Positions 29,249 through 37,987 of a stretch of 64,000 bases of DNA are shown piece after piece. The notes below the pieces were generated by a model. It was not told where the DNA came from, searched no databases, and saw only the letters and a program-made list of their open reading frames with translations. The translations under genes were made by a program, and so were the position numbers. Every line of letters begins with the position of its first letter. Position 1 is the first letter of the stretch. The stretch lies in NCBI GenBank assembly GCA_963831685.1, contig CAWHRJ010000002.1:675188-739187 (forward strand). Direction: 5' to 3'. Source of the stretch: an uncultured Pseudomonadota bacterium. GTDB taxonomy: Bacteria; Myxococcota_A; Polyangia; Fen-1088.

Positions 29249-29275
29249 GCATACATGGGTATGCTCGAAGTATGC
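29249..29275. promoter_or_regulatory. Candidate vapBC operator
   Basis: Inverted repeat GCATAC-atgg-GTATGC (29249-29264) plus a third GTATGC half-site (29270-29275) overlapping the vapB ATG. Confidence 0.35.
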
Positions 29276-29556
29276 GTAGGATTACGATCAGCCTGGATGA
29301 CGAGCTTGCGCGCCTGGCTGAGGCGGAAGTCCGGGCGGGACGCGCCCCTTCTGTGAGCGCTTGGATCGCGGATGCGATCCGCACGAAGGCGCGCGCCCGA
29401 GCCGAGCTCATCGCCGACTTCGAAGAGCTCGAACGTCGCGACCCGACGCCTCCTGAAATAATCGAGTCGACAGCGCGTGCGCTCGGGTTGCCTCGCAGTG
29501 TCGTTCTGAAAGCTCTCGGTCGCCGTGGTCGCGGTGGCGGCCGGCGGGCGGCGTGA
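29272..29556 (+). CDS. vapB: Ribbon-helix-helix antitoxin (VapB-like)
   Basis: The MRRITISLDDELARLAE N-terminus is RHH-like. GTGA overlap with the PIN gene. Confidence 0.7.
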   Translation: MRRITISLDDELARLAEAEVRAGRAPSVSAWIADAIRTKARARAELIADFEELERRDPTPPEIIESTARALGLPRSVVLKALGRRGRGGGRRAA

Positions 29557-29933
29557 CGAGCACCGTTCTGGACGCGGGCGCCTTGATCGCGCTCGAGCGA
29601 GGCGCCGCCAGCGTCCGTCCGTACGTTTTACTGGCTCGTCTCGCCGAGACGACGCTCGTCACCAGCGCGGCGGTGGTTGCCCAGGTCTGGCGAGGCGGCA
29701 GCCGGCAGGCACGGCTTACCCGCTTCCTCAACAGCGACCTCGTCACCGAGATCCCGCTCGACCCCGATGCGGCGCGCCGGATTGGCGTCCTGGCGGCGGC
29801 GGTCGGTTCGCGCGACGTCGTCGACGGACACGTCGCGCTCCTGGCGCTCGATCGCAACGCAGTCGTGCTCTCCAGCGATCCCGACGACATCGCCCGCTGG
29901 GGCGTGTCGGACGAGCGGATCGTCCGCTGTTGA
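29553..29933 (+). CDS. vapC: PIN-domain toxin (VapC-like)
   Basis: 126 aa. VLDAGALIALERG ... DGHVALLA ... VLSSDPDD carries the acidic PIN residues. Confidence 0.8.
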   Translation: MTSTVLDAGALIALERGAASVRPYVLLARLAETTLVTSAAVVAQVWRGGSRQARLTRFLNSDLVTEIPLDPDAARRIGVLAAAVGSRDVVDGHVALLALDRNAVVLSSDPDDIARWGVSDERIVRC

Positions 29934-29971
29934 ACGGCGGCGGCACTTGCGGCGCGCCTCAGGGCGCGGCT

Positions 29972-30181
29972 TTAGCCGCCGCCCCTGCTGGCCAGCCGCC
30001 TGAGTGCCTCGTTCACGGATTCCGATGTCGGAAACTTCTCGGCAACGTCCGGATCGAGGAGGACCACATTCGTCCCCTGCCGGTAGCGCTCAACATACTT
30101 ACCACGTACCCCACCCGTGAGGTCGTACTCAGGCAGCAGCTCGTCGTCTTCGTCGTCAGGCTTCATACTGCTCTCGCTCAT
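29972..30181 (-). CDS. BrnA-like antitoxin partner of the decayed BrnT
   Basis: 69 aa. LPEYDLTGGVRGKYVERYRQGTNVVLLDPDVAEKFPTSESVNEALRRL is a pattern I recognise from small antitoxins encoded after BrnT/DUF497 toxins. Confidence 0.6.
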   Translation of the reverse strand: MSESSMKPDDEDDELLPEYDLTGGVRGKYVERYRQGTNVVLLDPDVAEKFPTSESVNEALRRLASRGGG

Positions 30182-30425
30182 GACGAGTCATGACTCTAGC
30201 ATCGATGATCCGCGTCGTCCCGTCGCGGTCCGTATGAACACCGCGAGCAGGCGACCTCGACGGCTCAACCCAAACTGGACCATCCGTTCCTCAGCCCACG
30301 AGTGCCTCGGATCGGTGAATCGTGACAGAAAGCGGATCGTCGAAGACGGTGGACGCTTCGGCGAAGGACACGCCGTGCTTGGCCAGGTTTCGCGCTGCCT
30401 TCTCGGCGTCCCATTCGAATCGCAT
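30156..30425 (-). pseudogene. brnT: BrnT (DUF497) toxin with two frameshifts
   Basis: MRFEWDAEKAARNLAKHGVSFAEASTVFDDPLSVTI, then a shift to EERMVQFGLSRRGRLLAV, then a shift to HTDRDGTTRIIDARVMTRHEREQYEA. The start lies 3 nt after the yfbM-like stop. Confidence 0.7.
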
Positions 30426-30428
30426 CAC

Positions 30429-30923
30429 CTAACTCAGGTACAGGATCATCGAGTCACCCGCTCCTGCCGCTTCAGCGAAGAAGGTGCGCAGGGCTTCGTA
30501 ATAACCTACGACGTACCCTCTCCCTTCGGCTGACCATCCCTCTGGGTAGATTTCGGCGTTGGCGAACTTGTCCGCGTCGAATCCAGACCACAGCTGCTCA
30601 CCCGAGATGCCGCTCAGGGCTCTTGAGACCGCCTGAACATCGTGGGCCGAGAGGCCCCGCGCCGGACCGTACCCAACGTCTTCATCACCAAGCTCTATGC
30701 CACCCATGACCGCGTTCTGGAGCGGTGGTTTCCCTTCCCAAGGGTCGCCCGTGAGCAGGAACTGGATTGCATGCCACGCCTTATCGATATCCAGGTGCTT
30801 CCCATGGGGACGCTCGCCGTTCCCGTCATCAGGGTGCAGGAGCTCCAGGATATCGGACGGATCTTCACGAAGCCGCGCAAGCTGCACCTCGGGGATTCGC
30901 AGGTAGTTGCCGATCATCGACAT
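30429..30923 (-). CDS. YfbM/DUF1877 family protein
   Basis: 164 aa. MSMIGNYLRIPEVQLARL...LDIDKAWHAIQFLLTG... is the typical DUF1877 opening. The ATG lies 8 nt after the attC-like site E. Confidence 0.7.
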   Translation of the reverse strand: MSMIGNYLRIPEVQLARLREDPSDILELLHPDDGNGERPHGKHLDIDKAWHAIQFLLTGDPWEGKPPLQNAVMGGIELGDEDVGYGPARGLSAHDVQAVSRALSGISGEQLWSGFDADKFANAEIYPEGWSAEGRGYVVGYYEALRTFFAEAAGAGDSMILYLS

Positions 30924-30931
30924 GGTCGTCC

Positions 30932-30993
30932 GCCCAACGTTATCGCGTTCAGCGGCCTGGCGCAGCCCCGTCCGCTGGAACGCGTGGTTCGAC
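30932..30993 (-). repeat. attC-like structured repeat E (62 nt)
   Basis: Minus strand: GTCGAAC CAC GCGTTCCAGCGG ACGGGGCTGCGCCAGG CCGCTGAACGC GATAAC GTTGGGC. Confidence 0.6.
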
Positions 30994-31986
30994 AGCGCCT
31001 CCGTCGGCGTGAGCGTCCGAGTCGAAGGTCAGGCTCGACCGACGCACCCACGTCCGTTGCGGCTCGCACCCGAGCTCCGCGACCGCCGGATTCTTCAACA
31101 ACCGAAGCCATTCCCTTTCGGGGACCTCCTCCACTTCCACTCCCTCCACGTCGACCCGAGCGGTACCCCAGCGGATTCCCCCAGGCGACGCGTGAATTGA
31201 AGCACCCGCCTTCAGCGTAGCCACGCGTCTCGTGGCATCCGTCGCCAGCGAGTACACGCCACAACATCCAATCCCACCAACCCCCGTCAAGGCGAGGTAG
31301 CCGACCGTCCCCACCCTTCGCATGTCGGTCGAGGGCGTCCATCCCTGCGCGCGACCTGTACCAGCTTCCCACGCGATCCTGACCCATCCACGACGTCGCT
31401 CGAGGATATCGAAGGTCACCGAGTCGGGCTGAAGGCTGAGGTGCGCCGCATCGGGTTTCGGTGCCTCGTACACGGCGAGGCTCCTTCTTCGTGCGCGCGC
31501 CATCCCGATAGCTGCGACGTTGGGTTCGTGTAGTGGCGCGTGACCTTTGGTCGGGCGGCCGACAAGGAGAACGTCGCAGGGAATGCGGACGTCTTTCGCG
31601 ACGAGCTCCGTACCCAGCGGTATCGACGCCCGCATGACGCCGTTGCGACATCGCAAATCAGAGAGCCTGACAGTCTCATTGACGAAGAGCATTCCGCGCT
31701 CGACAGAGACAGGTTTCCGTAGATGGTGGACGACACTCCCCGGTGCCTCGACCGTGATCGCGGAGCCCATTGTCTCGACCGTGGGTGTAGATCGATCAGA
31801 GAACGTCACACGAACTTTGACCGGATCGGCAAACTCCAGGTCGAAGGGTTCGATGTCGCCCAGAAGGAGCGTCAGTTCGTCGCTTTCGCCCTCCGTGACA
31901 CACCCTGACCCAGCTTGCGCCGGCGCCACCGCCCATCCCAGGACGCCGGTGACGACACCCACCAGAATCGCCGGCCTACCCCGCAC
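30949..31986 (-). CDS. Secreted protein, unknown function (cassette 5)
   Basis: 345-aa ORF, GTG start, signal peptide (ILVGVVTGVLGWAVAPAQA). The stop lies inside repeat E. Confidence 0.5.
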   Translation of the reverse strand: MRGRPAILVGVVTGVLGWAVAPAQAGSGCVTEGESDELTLLLGDIEPFDLEFADPVKVRVTFSDRSTPTVETMGSAITVEAPGSVVHHLRKPVSVERGMLFVNETVRLSDLRCRNGVMRASIPLGTELVAKDVRIPCDVLLVGRPTKGHAPLHEPNVAAIGMARARRRSLAVYEAPKPDAAHLSLQPDSVTFDILERRRGWVRIAWEAGTGRAQGWTPSTDMRRVGTVGYLALTGVGGIGCCGVYSLATDATRRVATLKAGASIHASPGGIRWGTARVDVEGVEVEEVPEREWLRLLKNPAVAELGCEPQRTWVRRSSLTFDSDAHADGGAVEPRVPADGAAPGR

Positions 31987-32026
31987 CTACGAATAGACAA
32001 CCGGCACCCTCTCCCGTTCCCTGTCT

Positions 32027-32091
32027 GTCGAACGCGTTGTGTTCAGCGACGGGCCGGTCGCCGGCCCGTCGGCCGCAACGGGTTGTTGGCC
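32027..32091 (-). repeat. attC-like structured repeat D (65 nt, most divergent)
   Basis: Minus strand: GGCCAAC AACCCGTTGCGGCCGACGGGCCGG CGA CCGGCCCGTCGCTGAACACAACGC GTTCGAC. Confidence 0.45.
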
Positions 32092-32226
32092 GGGCCGCCG
32101 GCCGGGCCCGGTTGGCTTCCGCCGAGGATGATCCTCTTGTCACCGAAGGACGCCACGAGCTCGAGCTGTCCACCGAGGGCGGCGATGTACGCAAGGCTGA
32201 CGCCGACCGCCGGCACAGCGGCTCGC

Positions 32227-33225
32227 TCAGGGCGAGACCTTCCACAGCTGCTGGAAGGTCTGCAGGTAGAGGCTCCCGTCCTCCGCTGCGGCCATCGAAC
32301 AGAACACGAAGCTCAGCGGGTCGTACTGTGCTGCCTTTGCGTCGGCAAGCGAAGGCGTCGTCTCGACGAGCGTGGCGTCTGCCTTGTCGGTCGTGCCGTC
32401 GGCAAGATGATAGATCCGGGTCACGCACTCGGGGCAATCGTTGATCACGATGTAGAAACCGCCCTTTGGATCGCGCGCCGTGCAGATGACGGTGGGAGTG
32501 AATCCCGTGAACGTTGCGACGCCCGAGCCATCCACGTTCCCGTGATAGAGCGGTGAACCGTTGCAGCCAGGCTGATACAAGAACACGCCCGTTGGCGCCG
32601 CGCTCAGACCTTGCAGGGCGCAGTTCTCGGCGTTTTCGAGCAGCGCATTCGGATAGACGAGCATCTGGCTCGTCGAAGAGGCGGTGTACAGACCACCGAC
32701 GTTGACGATGGCGACGCGCTCCGCGGAGATGACGGAGAGTCGGGCCACGTCAATGCTCGAGACGTCGATCCAGGGCTGGGCTACGTGGGCCGACGACGAT
32801 CGAACGACGACCGCGACGGCGGTGCCCGTGGAGGGGGACCCGCTCAGCGCGACGTACAGCAGACCGTCCGGTCCCCTGTCGAGGTCGGTGATCCGGTTCG
32901 TCACCGTGGGTGGCGTCCCGGCAGCCGCCTCTTCGAGGGTCAGGTACGTACTGACGTTCACGCCGTCAATCAACCACACGTTCTCGGTGTCCTCGAAGTA
33001 GACACGGTTCTGAGCGTCCACGGCCATGCCCCCCACGCGTTGCCGCCCACTCCACGGAGCGTTGTCGACGACCATCGTCAGCGTGCGTGGTCCCGAGCCC
33101 GCCTCGCCGCCCCGATCGACCCCGGCATCGACCCGAGCCGCGGGCGACCCTGAACAGCCCAGCTCACCGGCGAGTGCCGACACGATGAGAGGCAGGACGA
33201 TGGACCGCATGGCTCCGGAGTGCAT
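32227..33225 (-). CDS. Secreted lipoprotein, propeller-like, unknown function (cassette 4)
   Basis: 332 aa. MRSIVLPLIVSALAGELGC lipobox. The ATG lies 7 nt after repeat C. Confidence 0.6.
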   Translation of the reverse strand: MHSGAMRSIVLPLIVSALAGELGCSGSPAARVDAGVDRGGEAGSGPRTLTMVVDNAPWSGRQRVGGMAVDAQNRVYFEDTENVWLIDGVNVSTYLTLEEAAAGTPPTVTNRITDLDRGPDGLLYVALSGSPSTGTAVAVVVRSSSAHVAQPWIDVSSIDVARLSVISAERVAIVNVGGLYTASSTSQMLVYPNALLENAENCALQGLSAAPTGVFLYQPGCNGSPLYHGNVDGSGVATFTGFTPTVICTARDPKGGFYIVINDCPECVTRIYHLADGTTDKADATLVETTPSLADAKAAQYDPLSFVFCSMAAAEDGSLYLQTFQQLWKVSP

Positions 33226-33232
33226 CGCCGTC

Positions 33233-33294
33233 CGTCAACGTTATCGCGTTCAGCGGTGGGGCGCAGCCCCGTCCGCTGCAACGCGCGGTTGGAC
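33233..33294 (-). repeat. attC-like structured repeat C (62 nt)
   Basis: Minus strand: GTCCAAC CGC GCGTTGCAGCGG ACGGGGCTGCGCCCCA CCGCTGAACGC GATAAC GTTGACG. Confidence 0.6.
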
Positions 33295-33714
33295 AGCGCC
33301 TCGTCGCTGACGAGGCACGATGAAGAAGGCCGTCGCAATTACGATTATCGCAATGCCGATGGACGCAAAACAGGGTAGTCCGCTCGACAAGGCTGCCGCA
33401 GTGTATGCATGTGCAGCGAGTGCGCGCGGAGGATCGTACTCGCCGCAGTAACTGAAGTAGGCATAAGGCGGCAGGGCGAGAAGGGGAACAAGGATCAGTG
33501 GGCGTCGCTCATGGGATGCGGCCGCGTAGCCACACGCCACCGCCACGAGAAAAGCCGGAAGAATCCATAGGACGCTCAAGACGCCCCAAGGCAACCAGAT
33601 CTCGAGAGCTCGCCCCGCGTGAGACTGGGCAGCCCATCGAGCGGCGCCGTTACACGCGACACCCAGCGCAAGAAATATCCCAGTTACCGCTACGAGTGTT
33701 CCGCCCCTCCTCAT
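33250..33714 (-). CDS. Small multi-TM membrane protein (cassette 3)
   Basis: MRRGGTLVAVTGIFLALGVAC... about four hydrophobic helices. The ATG at 33714 lies 6 nt after repeat B. The ORF-track N-terminal extension is rejected. Confidence 0.55.
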   Translation of the reverse strand: MRRGGTLVAVTGIFLALGVACNGAARWAAQSHAGRALEIWLPWGVLSVLWILPAFLVAVACGYAAASHERRPLILVPLLALPPYAYFSYCGEYDPPRALAAHAYTAAALSSGLPCFASIGIAIIVIATAFFIVPRQRRGAVQPRVAADGAAPHR

Positions 33715-33720
33715 CCGTCT

Positions 33721-33782
33721 GTCCAACGTTATGGCGTTGAGCGGCGGGGCGAAGCCCCGTCCGCGCCAACGCCGGGTTGGGC
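33721..33782 (-). repeat. attC-like structured repeat B (62 nt)
   Basis: Minus strand: GCCCAAC CCG GCGTTGGCGCGG ACGGGGCTTCGCCCCG CCGCTCAACGC CATAAC GTTGGAC. Confidence 0.6.
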
Positions 33783-34181
33783 AGCTTGACCGCGACGCCG
33801 CTCCAGTCGAAGGCCCTTTACCGCCAAAGCCACCAGGGCGAGCGAGCTGGCCAGGCCGGCGATTCCAACTGCCGTGGCCGAAGCGAACAGCAAGAAGATC
33901 AGTGCCCAAAGGCCGTTCAGGCTGATACAGGCCCACCAAAGTGCGGTCGGGTCCTTCCAAGATGTCGTCCCGAATCCCCGCCGAAGCAATCCGATGTACA
34001 CGACCCAGCCCAGTCCGAAGACGGCCAGGTATGCGACGACGCCACCTATACCCTCGCGTAAAGCGGCCGGGATCTGCGCCGCCAAAAGGATCGCCCAACC
34101 CGTGCCGATGATCGCTGCGATTGCCGCCAGCGTCCGCGAGAGCCGCTCGTCACGATCCGGGATCCAAAGGTCGGTGTCCAT
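33729..34181 (-). CDS. Small multi-TM membrane protein (cassette 2)
   Basis: MDTDLWIPDRDERLSRTLAAIAAIIGTGWAILLAA... about four helices. The ATG at 34181 lies 9 nt after repeat A. Confidence 0.55.
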   Translation of the reverse strand: MDTDLWIPDRDERLSRTLAAIAAIIGTGWAILLAAQIPAALREGIGGVVAYLAVFGLGWVVYIGLLRRGFGTTSWKDPTALWWACISLNGLWALIFLLFASATAVGIAGLASSLALVALAVKGLRLERRRGQAAQPGVGADGASPRRSTP

Positions 34182-34190
34182 CGCCTGTCT

Positions 34191-34252
34191 GCCCAACGTC
34201 GTGGCGTTAACCCGCGGGCCGCAGGCCCGTCGGGTTCAACGCCGGGTTAGCC
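34191..34252 (-). repeat. attC-like structured repeat A (62 nt)
   Basis: Minus strand: GGCTAAC CCG GCGTTGAACCCG ACGGGCCTGCGGCCCG CGGGTTAACGC CACGAC GTTGGGC. The TAA stop of the SMI1 gene sits inside GGCTAAC. Confidence 0.6.
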
Positions 34253-34702
34253 AGCCTTCCCGTATAGGGCCTGGTCACCAGAGAGCACCATCTGGACAAA
34301 GTCGGTGAATGTTTCGGCGATCGGAACGGGAGTACCGTTCGCCACCAGAACAACTTCCATCCGATCGGGCGTCTCGGCAGAGAATCGCGCTCCATAGGCC
34401 CAACACCAATACGAATGGTCGGCGAAGACCACGGTGTTCGCAAGATGTCCCTGTGCGTACTGCGGCGCTTCTTCTTCAACCCGTCGCCACTTGTCGAGGG
34501 ACCAGAGCGTGATGAGGCCATGATCGACGTCGGTCATATCCGCCGTCCCGTTCATGCGTTCGTAGAACGCCCGCGCATCCGCCGGCAAGGTGATGCCTAG
34601 TCTCCGTTCAGTCGACGCGACCTCGTCAGGGCTGCATGGCCGGTTGCGCTGGGCGTCCACGAACGAGGCGACCGCATCTGCGAGTTCGTGTGGCGTTCGC
34701 AT
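34247..34702 (-). CDS. SMI1/KNR4 (SUKH-1) family protein (cassette 1)
   Basis: MRTPHELADAVASFV...VASTERRLGITLPADARAFYERMNG...LWSLDKW...VVFADHSYWCWAYG is the typical SUKH-1 pattern. The ATG at 34702 lies 6 nt after GTTAGCC. Confidence 0.8.
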   Translation of the reverse strand: MRTPHELADAVASFVDAQRNRPCSPDEVASTERRLGITLPADARAFYERMNGTADMTDVDHGLITLWSLDKWRRVEEEAPQYAQGHLANTVVFADHSYWCWAYGARFSAETPDRMEVVLVANGTPVPIAETFTDFVQMVLSGDQALYGKAG

Positions 34703-34708
34703 TGGTCT

Positions 34709-34727
34709 GGCTAACTTTGTATTAACC
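34709..34727 (-). promoter_or_regulatory. attI-like core site preceding cassette 1
   Basis: Minus strand GGTTAATACAAAGTTAGCC. Compare, from memory, the attI1 core CTAAAACAAAGTTAGGC. Confidence 0.35.
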
Positions 34728-34937
34728 AGCAATCTCCCGCTGCCCTAGATTTTTCGCAAGCAGTGACATTGGTCCGTGGGGATGCTGGCAGGCGAGCTCG
34801 GAGCGCAACGATGTCAGACGGTTTCGCAACGCCGGCCCCAAGACGGGCGGGCAACGTAGCCGCGGCCCGGTCTGTATAATCTGCGAAGAGAACCTGTGAC
34901 GCGGGCTACGGGTCGCGGTCGGAGGTCGGACCGCGCG

Positions 34938-37883
34938 TTAGAACTTCACGTCGACGGCGTTGCCGTTGTAGCTAACGCTCTTGTCGGCCTTGGGGGTGAA
35001 CGAGAAACCGACGGGCTTGTCCTTAGCGACCAGCACCACGTCGAAGGTGTGTTGCGGGGGCATTCCCGGGAACGCACCCTCGCGCTTGCCGATGGTGAGG
35101 GTGCGGGTGGCGTCGGTCCAGTGGAGGGGGACGCGCGCGAAGGCGCCGTTTTCGTAGCCGTAGCTCTGGCCGTCGTCCTCGTACAGGGTGAACGTGCCGT
35201 CGGCGCCGGCGTAGACCCACAGGGTGATCGGGTCGGCGGGCTTCTCGTCGGTGTACATGAGCTCGGGGCCGGTCGGGATGATTGAACCGGCGCGGACGTG
35301 GACGGGGATCGAATCGTAGGGCGCCGAGACGTCGATCGACTGACCGCCGGCCGCGGTGCCGCCGGTCCAGAAGTCGTACCAGGCGGGGGCGGTCGGCAGG
35401 TAGACGGTGCGGCTGCGCGCCCGGTAGGTGGTCACCGGGCTCACGAGCAGCGCCGGGCCGAACATGAACTGGTCGCTGACGTCGCGCGCCTTGGTGTCGG
35501 CGCGGAAGTCCATCACCAGCGGGCGCATGATTGTCCCGCCCGCCTGCGTGACGTCGCCGGCCAGCGAATAGAGGTATGGCAGCAGGCGGTAGCGGACGCG
35601 GTCGAACTTCAGCTCGGCTTTGTAGGCGGGGCTCGATTCGCCGCCGAACTCCCACATCTCGCGCTTGGGCGCCTCGCCGTGCACGCGCAAGAGCGGCACG
35701 AAGGTGCCGAACTGGAACCAGCGCGTGTTTAGCTCGCGCCATTCTTCGGTGTCCTCGGCGCTCGGGTGCGCCGTCGCGAAGCGCTCGGGGACGGAGAAGC
35801 CGCCGATGTCCATCGACCAGTACGGGACGCCCGATACCGAGAGGCCGAGGCCGGCCGGGATCTGCGAGCGCAGCGCCGTCCAGGTCGAGGAGATGTCGCC
35901 CGACCAGACCGCGGCGCCGTAGTGCTGCTGCCCGGCGAACGCCGAGCGGGTGAGGATGAAGACGCGCTGATCGGGCGCCACGCCGCGCTGCCCCTCGTAG
36001 ACCGACTTGCTGTTGACCAGCGAGTAGGCGTTGAGCATGCGCGCCCCGGAGCCGAGCGCGGTCGGGTTCATGTGCGTCCGCTGGCCGTCGAGCGTCGGCG
36101 TCGGCAAGAGGTCCGGCTCGGGCGCGTCCAGCCACCAGGCGTCGACGTGCTTGCTGAAGATGTTCGTGTTCATCTGCGACCAGAACAGCTTCCCGGCCTC
36201 CGGGTTGAACGCGTCGTAGAAGGTGTACGGGTAGCCGCCGTCGCCCACCCAGTCGCGCAGCCCCTCCGCCAGGTTGAGGTGGTAGAGAAAACCCAGCGTG
36301 CGCATCGCCTCGAAGTTCTTCGTGCCGGGGTAGTACTTGCCCCACACCGAGATCATGAGGTGCGCGTGCTTGAAGTGGACCTCGCGCACCCACTTGTCCG
36401 GGTCGGGGAAGCGCGCCGGATCGAACTCGTCCGAGCCCCAGGCGTTCTCCTTCCAGTAGAACCAGTCCTGCACGATGGTGTCGAAGGGGATACCGCGCTT
36501 GCGGAAACCGTCGACGACGTCGAGGCTCTGCTTGGAGGTCTCGTAGCGCTGCCGGCTCTGCCAGAGCCCGAGCGTCCAGCGCGGGATCATCGGCGCCGGC
36601 CCGGTGACGCGCCGGTAGCCGGCGACGACGCCGTCCAGCTCGGGGCCGTAGACGAAGTAGTAGTCGATGCCGTCGCCGACCTCCGACCAGAGCGAGGTGG
36701 TGGGCGGCGTGGTCGCGTTCGCGTGGGGAGCAGCGAGCTCTGCTCGCTGCGTACCATCGCGGGGGGCTCCGGGACCCTCTGAGGGTCCCGCGTTGATTGG
36801 CGGCTTCCACAAGAGCTGCACCGTCTCCATGTTCTGGTCCTTGCTCCACTCGAGCCGGATCTTCGCGCGGTGGCCGGCGTCGAGCCGCACGCGCGCGACC
36901 TCCTTCCAGGGCAGCCACCCCTGGCGCCAGTGGTTGATGACCAGGTTGTCGTCGATCCACATCTTGATGCCGCTGTTCGAGAAGGTCTGGAACTGGTAGT
37001 CGCCGGTCACCGGCGGATCGACCTCGCCCGTCCAGCGCACGCTGGCGTTCCCCTCGGGGAGCCCGGCGAAGATGAGCGCGTTCGGCTTCTTCTCCTTGCT
37101 CGACAGCGCCAGGTCGATCACGCGATCGACCCGCTCGCCGTAGAGGTGCTTGAAGTCGGCGCCCTTGTAGAACTGCGCGGTGAACCCGCCCGGTTGGCCC
37201 TTGGCATCGAAGAGGCGGTCGGCCGGGATCGGCTCCCAGGGGCGCAGGTCACCGAAGCGCGTGAACGAGGTGTTGTCCCACAGGACGCCCCACCCCCGGC
37301 TCGACACCAGGAACGGAATGACGATGGTGCCGTTGTGCTGCCAGAGATCCAGGTCGTACCCCTTGATGTCGAGGAGCCCGATCTGGTTCTCGCCGAGCCC
37401 GTACAGCGCCTCGCCGTCGGCCGGCGCCCACTCCTGCCGCACGTGCTGCGTGTTCTCGCCCATCACCGTCGCCGGCATGAGCGTCCGGCCGCTCTCCTCC
37501 AGCAGCGGCGCGCCGCTCGGGTCGAGGAAGGAGACCCGGCCGCTGGCCAGATCGACGCGCGCCTTGAGCTTCGCGGTGGAGAGCGTCGCGGCGCCGCCCG
37601 CCTCGACGAAGTCGAACGGCGCGCCCTCACACTTCTTGGGCTGCGCGGCCAGGCTCTTGCGAACGAAGAACGACTCGTTCTTTGCGTAGGCGACGCGCAC
37701 GACATCGGCGGCGCAGATCTCCAGCTTCAGGAGCGCGTCGCCGAAACGCACGACCACACCGTCGGCCACGCGCTGAACCGACGTCGCCGGGCCGGGCCCG
37801 CAGGCCGATGGACCGGCGCCCTGCGGACCGGCGCACCCGACGATAGCGGCAGACAACACGACCAGGCAAACGGTTCGACGCAC
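34938..37883 (-). CDS. GH31 alpha-xylosidase-type glycoside hydrolase with PA14 insertion, lipoprotein
   Basis: Uninterrupted ORF. A GTG at 37883 is preceded by GAGGAGG and gives MRRTVCLVVLSAAIVGC. PA14-like block (GDYQFQTFSNSGIKMWIDDNLVINHW). GH31 blocks (DAWWLDAPEPD, PYWSMDIGGF, RWFQFGTFVPLLRVHG). Confidence 0.9.
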   Translation of the reverse strand: MRRTVCLVVLSAAIVGCAGPQGAGPSACGPGPATSVQRVADGVVVRFGDALLKLEICAADVVRVAYAKNESFFVRKSLAAQPKKCEGAPFDFVEAGGAATLSTAKLKARVDLASGRVSFLDPSGAPLLEESGRTLMPATVMGENTQHVRQEWAPADGEALYGLGENQIGLLDIKGYDLDLWQHNGTIVIPFLVSSRGWGVLWDNTSFTRFGDLRPWEPIPADRLFDAKGQPGGFTAQFYKGADFKHLYGERVDRVIDLALSSKEKKPNALIFAGLPEGNASVRWTGEVDPPVTGDYQFQTFSNSGIKMWIDDNLVINHWRQGWLPWKEVARVRLDAGHRAKIRLEWSKDQNMETVQLLWKPPINAGPSEGPGAPRDGTQRAELAAPHANATTPPTTSLWSEVGDGIDYYFVYGPELDGVVAGYRRVTGPAPMIPRWTLGLWQSRQRYETSKQSLDVVDGFRKRGIPFDTIVQDWFYWKENAWGSDEFDPARFPDPDKWVREVHFKHAHLMISVWGKYYPGTKNFEAMRTLGFLYHLNLAEGLRDWVGDGGYPYTFYDAFNPEAGKLFWSQMNTNIFSKHVDAWWLDAPEPDLLPTPTLDGQRTHMNPTALGSGARMLNAYSLVNSKSVYEGQRGVAPDQRVFILTRSAFAGQQHYGAAVWSGDISSTWTALRSQIPAGLGLSVSGVPYWSMDIGGFSVPERFATAHPSAEDTEEWRELNTRWFQFGTFVPLLRVHGEAPKREMWEFGGESSPAYKAELKFDRVRYRLLPYLYSLAGDVTQAGGTIMRPLVMDFRADTKARDVSDQFMFGPALLVSPVTTYRARSRTVYLPTAPAWYDFWTGGTAAGGQSIDVSAPYDSIPVHVRAGSIIPTGPELMYTDEKPADPITLWVYAGADGTFTLYEDDGQSYGYENGAFARVPLHWTDATRTLTIGKREGAFPGMPPQHTFDVVLVAKDKPVGFSFTPKADKSVSYNGNAVDVKF

Positions 37884-37987
37884 GGGAGCCTCCTCGAAGG
37901 GCCGCGATATTTCCACGACCGCCGGTCATTGGCTACAACTTCCAGGTATTCCCCGCGCGCGGCGCAGCAGGGTACACTCGCGCGCCC

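Follow-up and report, generated by a model that had tools for sequence, protein, structure and literature searches.

An intact attI site heads an integrase-less cassette array in an uncultured Polyangia bacterium and was probably served in trans

Introduction

CALINs outnumber complete integrons in bacterial genomes, are defined regardless of attI, which is unknown for most integrons, and in 95% of cases are without intI pseudogenes (PMC4889954). Cury et al. 2016 left four possible origins of CALINs unresolved, integrase loss among them, and both the origin and the activity of CALINs are open questions, partly because attI sites are known for few integron classes (PMC4889954). We encountered such an array in a 64,000-nt stretch of DNA (the window; positions 675188-739187 of contig C2) from an uncultured Polyangia bacterium. 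A GH31 glycoside hydrolase gene stands there in front of the first cassette, where an intI gene would be expected, and a reading of the sequence alone had noticed an attI1-like core between the two. The sequence-only reading took the array for one whose integrase had been deleted or one mobilised in trans. Is the site an attI, what became of intI, and has the array continued to acquire cassettes?

The window belongs to a 6.3-Mb, 17-contig assembly (G000), a metagenome-assembled genome (MAG) with 74% completeness and 4.4% contamination, and the comparison set comprised 25 genomes of the same uncultured Polyangia genus. The junctions, and the linkage of C2 with the integrase-bearing contig C9, were read from the assembly alone; as C2 and C9 are separate contigs of a MAG, we infer their co-presence in one cell.

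Results

We first describe the array and its flanks. The GH31 gene (34938-37916, minus strand; 992 aa; Pfam PF01055, PF21365, PF13802 and PA14) ends in TAA at 34940-34938, and its orthologues in seven genomes of the genus, 80-86% identical, stop at the identical position. A stretch of 235 nt (34703-34937) separates it from the start codon of an SMI1/KNR4 gene (Pfam PF09346; ATG at 34702, stop at 34249-34247), which together with its attC makes up cassette 1 (34197-34714, minus strand). The identities proposed earlier for both genes were borne out by Pfam. Cassettes 2-5 (30932-34196, minus strand) encode two small membrane and two secreted proteins without a Pfam match. Past the last attC, a terminal stretch on the same strand (29978-30931) holds a DUF1877 gene (Pfam PF08974), a brnT pseudogene and a brnA-like gene, and no closing attC was found in it. 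The frameshifted brnT and the brnA-like gene are followed at the array end (29272-30427) by vapBC on the opposite strand (29272-29933, plus). Since brnA and vapBC are conserved beside GH31 in genomes G002 and G006, they represent the flank of the locus rather than cassettes.

The five attC-like sites reported from the sequence (34252-34191, 33782-33721, 33294-33233, 32091-32027 and 30993-30932, minus strand) were confirmed by layout and folding. They are 62-65 nt long, share the form RYYYAAC...GTTRRRY with R''/L''/L'/R' boxes and point in one orientation, and their bottom strands fold as bulged hairpins (-15 to -25 kcal/mol, z -1.8 to -4.5), as in complete integrons. The array is a CALIN by the operational definition: its five attC sites share a strand and intI is missing for 4 kb around them, while the genome has complete integrons in other places. 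An Rfam scan of the window returned no family, and no attC model fired; we therefore built a Hidden Markov Model (HMM) from these five sites and searched G000 with it. The search revealed arrays directly downstream of both intI genes of the genome as well as several integrase-less arrays, and the arrays in G000 are located at contig ends. No match to the HMM fell between 34260 and 34937. In the intact integrons found by this search (on C9 and C4), intI, attI and cassettes follow one another on one strand; by this co-directional order, GH31 fills the intI slot at the window locus. We found neither a sigma-70 promoter nor an intrinsic terminator in 34500-35100 and could name no Pc there, so that read-through from GH31 is the simplest guess, and transcription of the cassettes probably depends on it.

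Next, we examined how the array begins. Between 34500 and 35100, the minus strand contains ...GCTGGTTAATACAAAGTTAGCCAGACCAATG ahead of the cassette 1 ATG at 34702, and re-reading it upheld the arrangement GGTTAATACAAAGTTAGCC-agacca-ATG, with GTT at 34715-34713 and ATG at 34702-34700. The candidate attI covers 51 nt at 34763-34713 (minus strand), reads CTGCTTGCGAAAAATCTAGGGCAGCGGGAGATTGCTGGTTAATACAAAG|TT as left arm and crossover triplet, and ends in GGTTAATACAAAG|TT, which places the crossover between G34715 and T34714. An alignment to the intI-proximal region of a chromosomal integron had been proposed as a check. On C9, the sequence from the intI stop to the first cassette (...CTGCTTGCCGAAAAGTTTAGGCTGCGAGAAGCTGCGGGTTAATACAAAGTT|CGACAG) aligns with 34763-34713, and the window block is homologous to this post-intI site; their 15-nt core, GGTTAATACAAAGTT, agrees without a mismatch.

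The block occurs four times in G000. A DNA search across the genus recovered 14 copies in nine of the 25 genomes, and a fifteenth, degenerate copy after GH31 in G002 was detected separately, giving 15 copies in 10 genomes. Four of them lie directly downstream of an intI gene of one type, here called type A (G000:C9, G006:C320, G017:C436 and G005:C180); no intI lies within 5 kb of the remaining 11. In the alignment of all 15 copies, column identity is about 0.9 across GCTTGCCGAAA..TT..GGCAGCGAGA.ACTGC.GGTTAATACAAAGTT and 0.3-0.5 on either side. Conservation ends exactly at GTT, to the right of which follows RRRY+(A/G)GAC, the tail of the genus's attC sites. On this alignment, the pattern is the structure expected for an attI/attC hybrid junction. 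The 62 nt before cassette 1 are unfolded (-2.7 kcal/mol, z +0.9), in agreement with the earlier remark that this site, unlike the five attC sites, has no hairpin partner. The block thus stands at the array head, with a conserved left arm running to G|TT and a right arm derived from an attC R' box, and the same sequence adjoins the cognate intI in intact integrons. Judged by these features, 34713-34763 is a bona fide attI of an integron family native to this Polyangia genus. That IntI would bind it and recombine it with attC at G|TT is suggested indirectly by an identical cassette in the C9 array, whose boundary of identity falls at G|TT, described below.

Mutated attI cores occur among the intI-less copies of G002, G003 and G018. 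A copy on contig C8 of G000 (locus L032, 237092-237239) carries GTA at the crossover, where GTT is expected, together with an internal deletion, and is probably a dead platform. It sits behind a fragment resembling a tRNA 3' end (GGTTCGAATCC...CCA), for which an ARAGORN scan of 13 loci made no tRNA call.

We then compared the site with attI1, using as reference an actual class 1 integron, NZ_MT077883 (...GCCCTAAAACAAAGTT|; in longer form ...GATGTTACGCAGCAGGGCAGTCGCCCTAAAACAAAGTT|). The 17-mer given in the sequence-only reading, said to match at 15 of 17 positions, in fact matches at 14. The likeness is confined to the left arm at the crossover, which is nearly equal in the two sites (window TAAAACAAAG|TT, attI1 TAATACAAAG|TT), agreeing at 11 of 12 positions in register with the crossover; sequence beyond this core is unrelated. 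The core exceeds chance: base composition predicts 0.065 occurrences of TAANACAAAGTT in the 6.3 Mb of G000, and three are present, each of them at the head of a cassette array. Local alignment of attI1 with four attI copies recovered the 12-nt core alone, at p ~0.01 by shuffling, a value that does not count the register.

Further parallels are a similar conserved length (~50-65 bp) and cognate integrases that are 52-55% identical (type A IntI against IntI1). In class 1 integrons, intI is divergent from the cassettes, whereas in this genus it lies upstream on the same strand. At roughly the place of attI1 DR1 (GTTACGCAGCAG), the genus attI has GTTTAGG(C)AGCG; as this part of the block varies between copies, it is a weak lead only, and the resemblance was lost under gap penalties in local alignment. 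By sequence, L/R boxes, DR1, DR2 and integrase partner, the window site falls outside attI1 and, on the sequence comparison, is a separate attI family with an attI1-like core. Given the left-arm match and an IntI1-like type A integrase with the catalytic residues, common ancestry of the two cores is plausible.

Two CGTTGCG direct repeats further upstream (34804-34831, minus strand) had been likened to the accessory, integrase-binding repeats of attI sites. The pair is present (34810-34804, and (C)GTTGCG at 34831-34825), but the comparison does not hold. It lies outside the conserved blocks; C9 has AGTGCC and CGTTTGT in its place, and neither G001 nor C8 has the repeats. Moreover, when the 235-nt region is shuffled by dinucleotides, a pair of 7-mers within 40 nt turns up in 37% of the outcomes. 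To judge by conservation, these are not integrase-binding repeats.

A whole-genome search for integrases, also suggested earlier, identified two full-length IntI genes in G000 above the curated cut-off of TIGR02249, both away from the window (C9:85051-85992 and C4:2009962-2010867). TIGR02249 had no match near C2:705-711k or within ~650 kb on C2, tblastn with IntI across the 15-kb window locus had none either, and the window locus is not a complete integron, which would have intI within 4 kb of attI and array. The C9 gene (type A) scores 449 bits with TIGR02249 and contains no stops, and its product aligns without gaps to IntI1 at 52% identity with the catalytic R, K, H-x-x-R, H and Y present; from its sequence, this integrase looks active. 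The type A proteins at the four intI-linked attI copies are 87-100% identical to it. The C4 enzyme (type B) is 67% identical, and its own site differs, GGAGAATAG[G/T]AGTT|.

The distribution of the two types across the genus merits separate mention. Three arrays in G001 are headed by type A attI, yet its assembly, 89% complete, yielded a type B intI and no other. Either these sites are used by the type B enzyme, or their cognate gene has been lost or did not make it into the assembly. A core-genome segment upstream of the C9 type A intI (C9:80000-82950) is orthologous to the segment upstream of type B intI in G001 (C2:74513-77442) and G004 (C188:42956-45916), indicating one chromosomal locus that carries different integrase types by species.

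To trace the fate of intI at the window locus, we compared the sequence behind GH31 with the intI-linked copies. The earlier statement that no recombinase-like frame precedes the GH31 stop stands as far as a frame is concerned, but a putative 21-nt remnant of the intI 3' end, stop included, is present at 34906-34926 (minus strand). It begins 11 nt past the GH31 stop, is collinear with the four intI-linked copies and comprises the last ~7 codons and stop (ACC TCC GAC CGC GAC CCG TAG). The window reads ACCTCCGACCGCGACCCGTAG (34926-34906) where C9 reads CCCCTCGACCGCCCGCCGTAG, and type A IntI ends in ...SPLDRPP*. Upstream of a second conserved block, 17 of 26 positions match the intI-linked copies, against ~29% expected in this composition. 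The sequence evidence for an intI tail is suggestive.

This second block, block 2 (GTCACAGGTTCTCTTCGCAGATTATACAGACCGG; 34867-34900, minus strand), directly follows the intI stop in intact integrons. Its consensus, GTCACAG..CTCTTCG..TTAGACAGACC (GTCACAGATnCTCTTCGnnnnTTAGACAGACC), is shared by all four intI-linked and by five intI-less copies; occurrences include G000:C9:86006-86040 and loci L024, L026 and L032. Elsewhere the block holds an R'-like GTTAGAC-AGAC, which is degenerate in the window (ATTATAC). We considered this GTTAGAC as the left end of a mobile, attI-carrying "giant cassette" and rejected the idea, as intI-less copies retain sequence upstream of the GTT. Block 2 might be a promoter or an additional integrase site.

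The age of the loss was approached through related genomes, where the earlier reading had advised looking for intI at this junction. They show the GH31-attI junction without intI: in G001, block 2 and attI lie directly behind the GH31 orthologue (85% amino-acid identity), and G002 has a degenerate attI core 20 nt past the stop of GH31. The right flank is also kept, with brnA ~600 nt after the GH31 stop in G002 (88% amino-acid identity) and vapBC ~960 nt after it in G006. Because different species retain these flanks, the platform at GH31 is old, and the loss of intI most likely predates the split of G000 and G001. Downstream of the GH31 orthologues of G004, G010 and G011, the DNA is unrelated or rearranged and holds no array, so that a single ancient deletion requires later losses or rearrangements in those lineages. 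A clean empty site was not found among the GH31 orthologues; G006 has GH31, 960 nt and vapBC, without attI.

No recognisable intI body was found at any of the 11 intI-less attI copies (L021-L032, L040). The breakpoints at these copies are either no more than ~30 nt away from the intI stop or inside the 190-nt spacer, though intI is a target five times larger, and their placement near the stop may be non-random.

Finally, we asked whether cassettes had changed at intI-less loci. Synteny between G000 and G001, at 80-85% nucleotide identity, runs as far as the GH31 stop; past it the attI block and the attC repeats are all that the two have in common, and none of the cassettes is shared. Three pairs of intI-less loci are common to species (the GH31 locus in G000/G001, G001_C7b/G021 and G001_C7a/G004). 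Identity in these pairs is 65-81% in the left flank, 86-90% in the attI block and 52-57% in the first 450 nt after GTT, and the spacer upstream of the attI block shows 48-52% in two of the three; unrelated sequence aligned in the same way gives 52.5 +/- 2.6%. With the attI block at 86-90% and the sequence after GTT at the random level, these results indicate that attI is kept while cassettes turn over.

Cassette 1 provides a recent case. Its protein has an identical copy on C9 (151 of 151 residues), encoded in the third cassette of the intI-linked array. A 537-nt DNA match to C9:87114-87649 is 99.4% identical, and all three differences lie outside the cassette; the interior is 100% identical to C9:87117-87637, and neither flank of the cassette corresponds between the two places. 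To its left, the window reads GGTTAATACAAAG|TTAGCCAGACC and C9, where an attC precedes, GCTGAACGGCAAAACG|TTAGCCAGACC, so that identity starts at G|TT; on the right it ends at the R' box GTTGGGC. Read from these boundaries, the pattern is the signature of an attC x attC excision followed by an attI x attC insertion, with the newest cassette next to attI in the integrase-less array. As the SMI1 copies are identical while the intI-less junction is shared with species 15-20% diverged, the insertion would be much younger than the intI loss, and an integrase would thus have acted in trans.

Core-genome DNA upstream of the C9 intI is 80-90% identical to relatives, like the flanks of the window; it reaches 87% to G001 and G004, and the GH31 region 85%. 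This equal divergence argues that C9 and C2 come from the same kind of genome. Further cassettes are common to arrays within G000 at 96-99% identity, which suggests that the system is active.

Among other repeated cassettes, the first one on C9 (86189-86711, ~520 nt) has at least eight repeats at 97-99.6% identity in the same array (C9:90000-107200). A 1.3-kb cassette occurs at C9:94440-95742, C9:1595-2897 and C4:2014646-2015948 with 96-97% identity. These positions lie in the type A array, in another array, at the opposite end of C9, and in the type B integron on C4, indicating that cassettes move between arrays of different integrases. The C9 array also holds a second SMI1/KNR4 cassette (93989-94438), 45% identical to cassette 1.

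Discussion

We consider it quite probable that the window array is headed by a genuine attI whose intI was deleted, that the type A integrase serves it in trans, and that its SMI1 cassette was copied from C9. Both halves of the sequence-only reading find a place in this account. Deletion is supported by the homologous attI on C9, the putative intI tail and the shared GH31-attI junction, and mobilisation in trans by the two IntI genes elsewhere and by the identical C9 cassette with its boundary at G|TT. The intI gene would have been lost in an ancestor shared with at least two other species, leaving attI intact and, directly behind the stop codon of GH31, ~21 nt of the intI 3' end. From C9, the type A integrase would then bind the double-stranded window attI in trans and recombine it, at G|TT (34715|34714), with an excised cassette's attC in its folded bottom-strand form, placing new cassettes at the head of the array. 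The SMI1 cassette would be a copy of the third C9 cassette inserted in this way. The type B integrase on C4 could be the acting enzyme instead.

Alternatively, the attI could be genuine but a dead relic, with cassette differences that predate the intI loss or stem from homologous recombination or gene conversion between arrays. Such decay is seen in intI-less copies, in the GTA of the C8 copy and in the mutated cores of G002, G003 and G018, and G001 carries three type A attI copies with only a type B intI found. The 15-nt core of the window is, however, identical to that of intI-linked copies, and a 100% identical SMI1 cassette behind a junction shared at 15-20% GH31 divergence points to an insertion far younger than the loss. 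Homologous recombination, moreover, cannot make a G|TT junction between an attI arm and an attC-flanked cassette, and we regard the relic as unlikely. We think it somewhat less likely again that binning or strain mixture misleads us, C9 and C2 deriving from different strains or cells, the array's own cell lacking a cognate integrase and the cassette having moved between cells. A MAG with 4.4% contamination and arrays at contig ends invites this doubt, but the core DNA of C9 is as diverged from relatives as the window is (87% vs 85%) and the attC families on the two contigs are alike. Even so, an integrase must have acted on an attI without a neighbouring intI.

The block might also be a promoter, operator or leader preceding arrays, with a chance likeness to attI1. 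Recombination and IntI binding are deduced here by sequence comparison, and local alignment with attI1 yields only the 12-nt core (p ~0.01, register ignored), which leaves some room for this view. Against it, conservation stops at the GTT that opens each first cassette, the block is directly downstream of intI in four genomes, the boundary of cassette identity falls on its GTT, no sigma-70 motif was found, and within the genome the core is confined to array heads. A regulatory element is therefore very improbable.

Compared with CALINs generally, the window locus has an identified, intact attI with a sign of use, plus a putative intI tail that points to an origin by integrase loss. The ilvD-linked chromosomal integrons of Xanthomonas, with decayed intI and CALINs at conserved loci whose attI sites were not examined, resemble it in that several species have inherited an array at a fixed chromosomal locus where the integrase no longer functions (PMC12444791). 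Inactivated Xanthomonas platforms tend to frozen cassette content, for example in pv. citri, whereas content at the window locus has fully turned over between species; in addition, the window intI appears to have been lost nearly down to its stop codon instead of decaying into a pseudogene, and one cassette seems freshly copied from an active integron. Cassettes at non-classical attG genome sites likewise lie away from any intI and owe their insertion to an integrase whose gene is in another place (10.1101/2022.09.11.507474). The target in the window differs, being a conserved 51-nt attI homologous to the intI-linked one rather than an attG site. The standard attI x attC assay places intI1 and attI1 on separate plasmids and supplies IntI in trans (PMC9892861). 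The mechanism would be alike, as attI needs IntI only in trans; there it is a laboratory set-up, here a natural and long-lived genome architecture.

A limited literature search turned up no account of one integrase serving several attI-headed arrays that lack an intI of their own. New here are a defined attI family for these integrons, a CALIN that carries this attI intact beside a putative intI scar, and probable natural evidence of continued cassette capture at an integrase-less array. Laboratories use attI with IntI in trans as a matter of course, which makes this an incremental advance and not a revolutionary one.

In a broader reading, to which we give an even chance, the integron of this genus is a distributed system in which one integrase locus serves several intI-less, attI-headed "satellite" arrays at fixed loci, inherited across species and still acquiring cassettes. 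Satellites would outnumber integrase-linked sites (11 of the 15 attI copies), and the 51-nt attI would be under purifying selection while the spacer drifts to random. That intI was repeatedly lost, at independent loci, down to its final ~20-30 nt might point to a specific route by which satellites are made. With defined sequences, the hypothesis of CALINs as functional platforms served in trans becomes directly testable, and we suggest attI homologues at CALIN heads as a way to sort CALINs by origin. If the distributed system is real, many CALINs would be working platforms, not debris.
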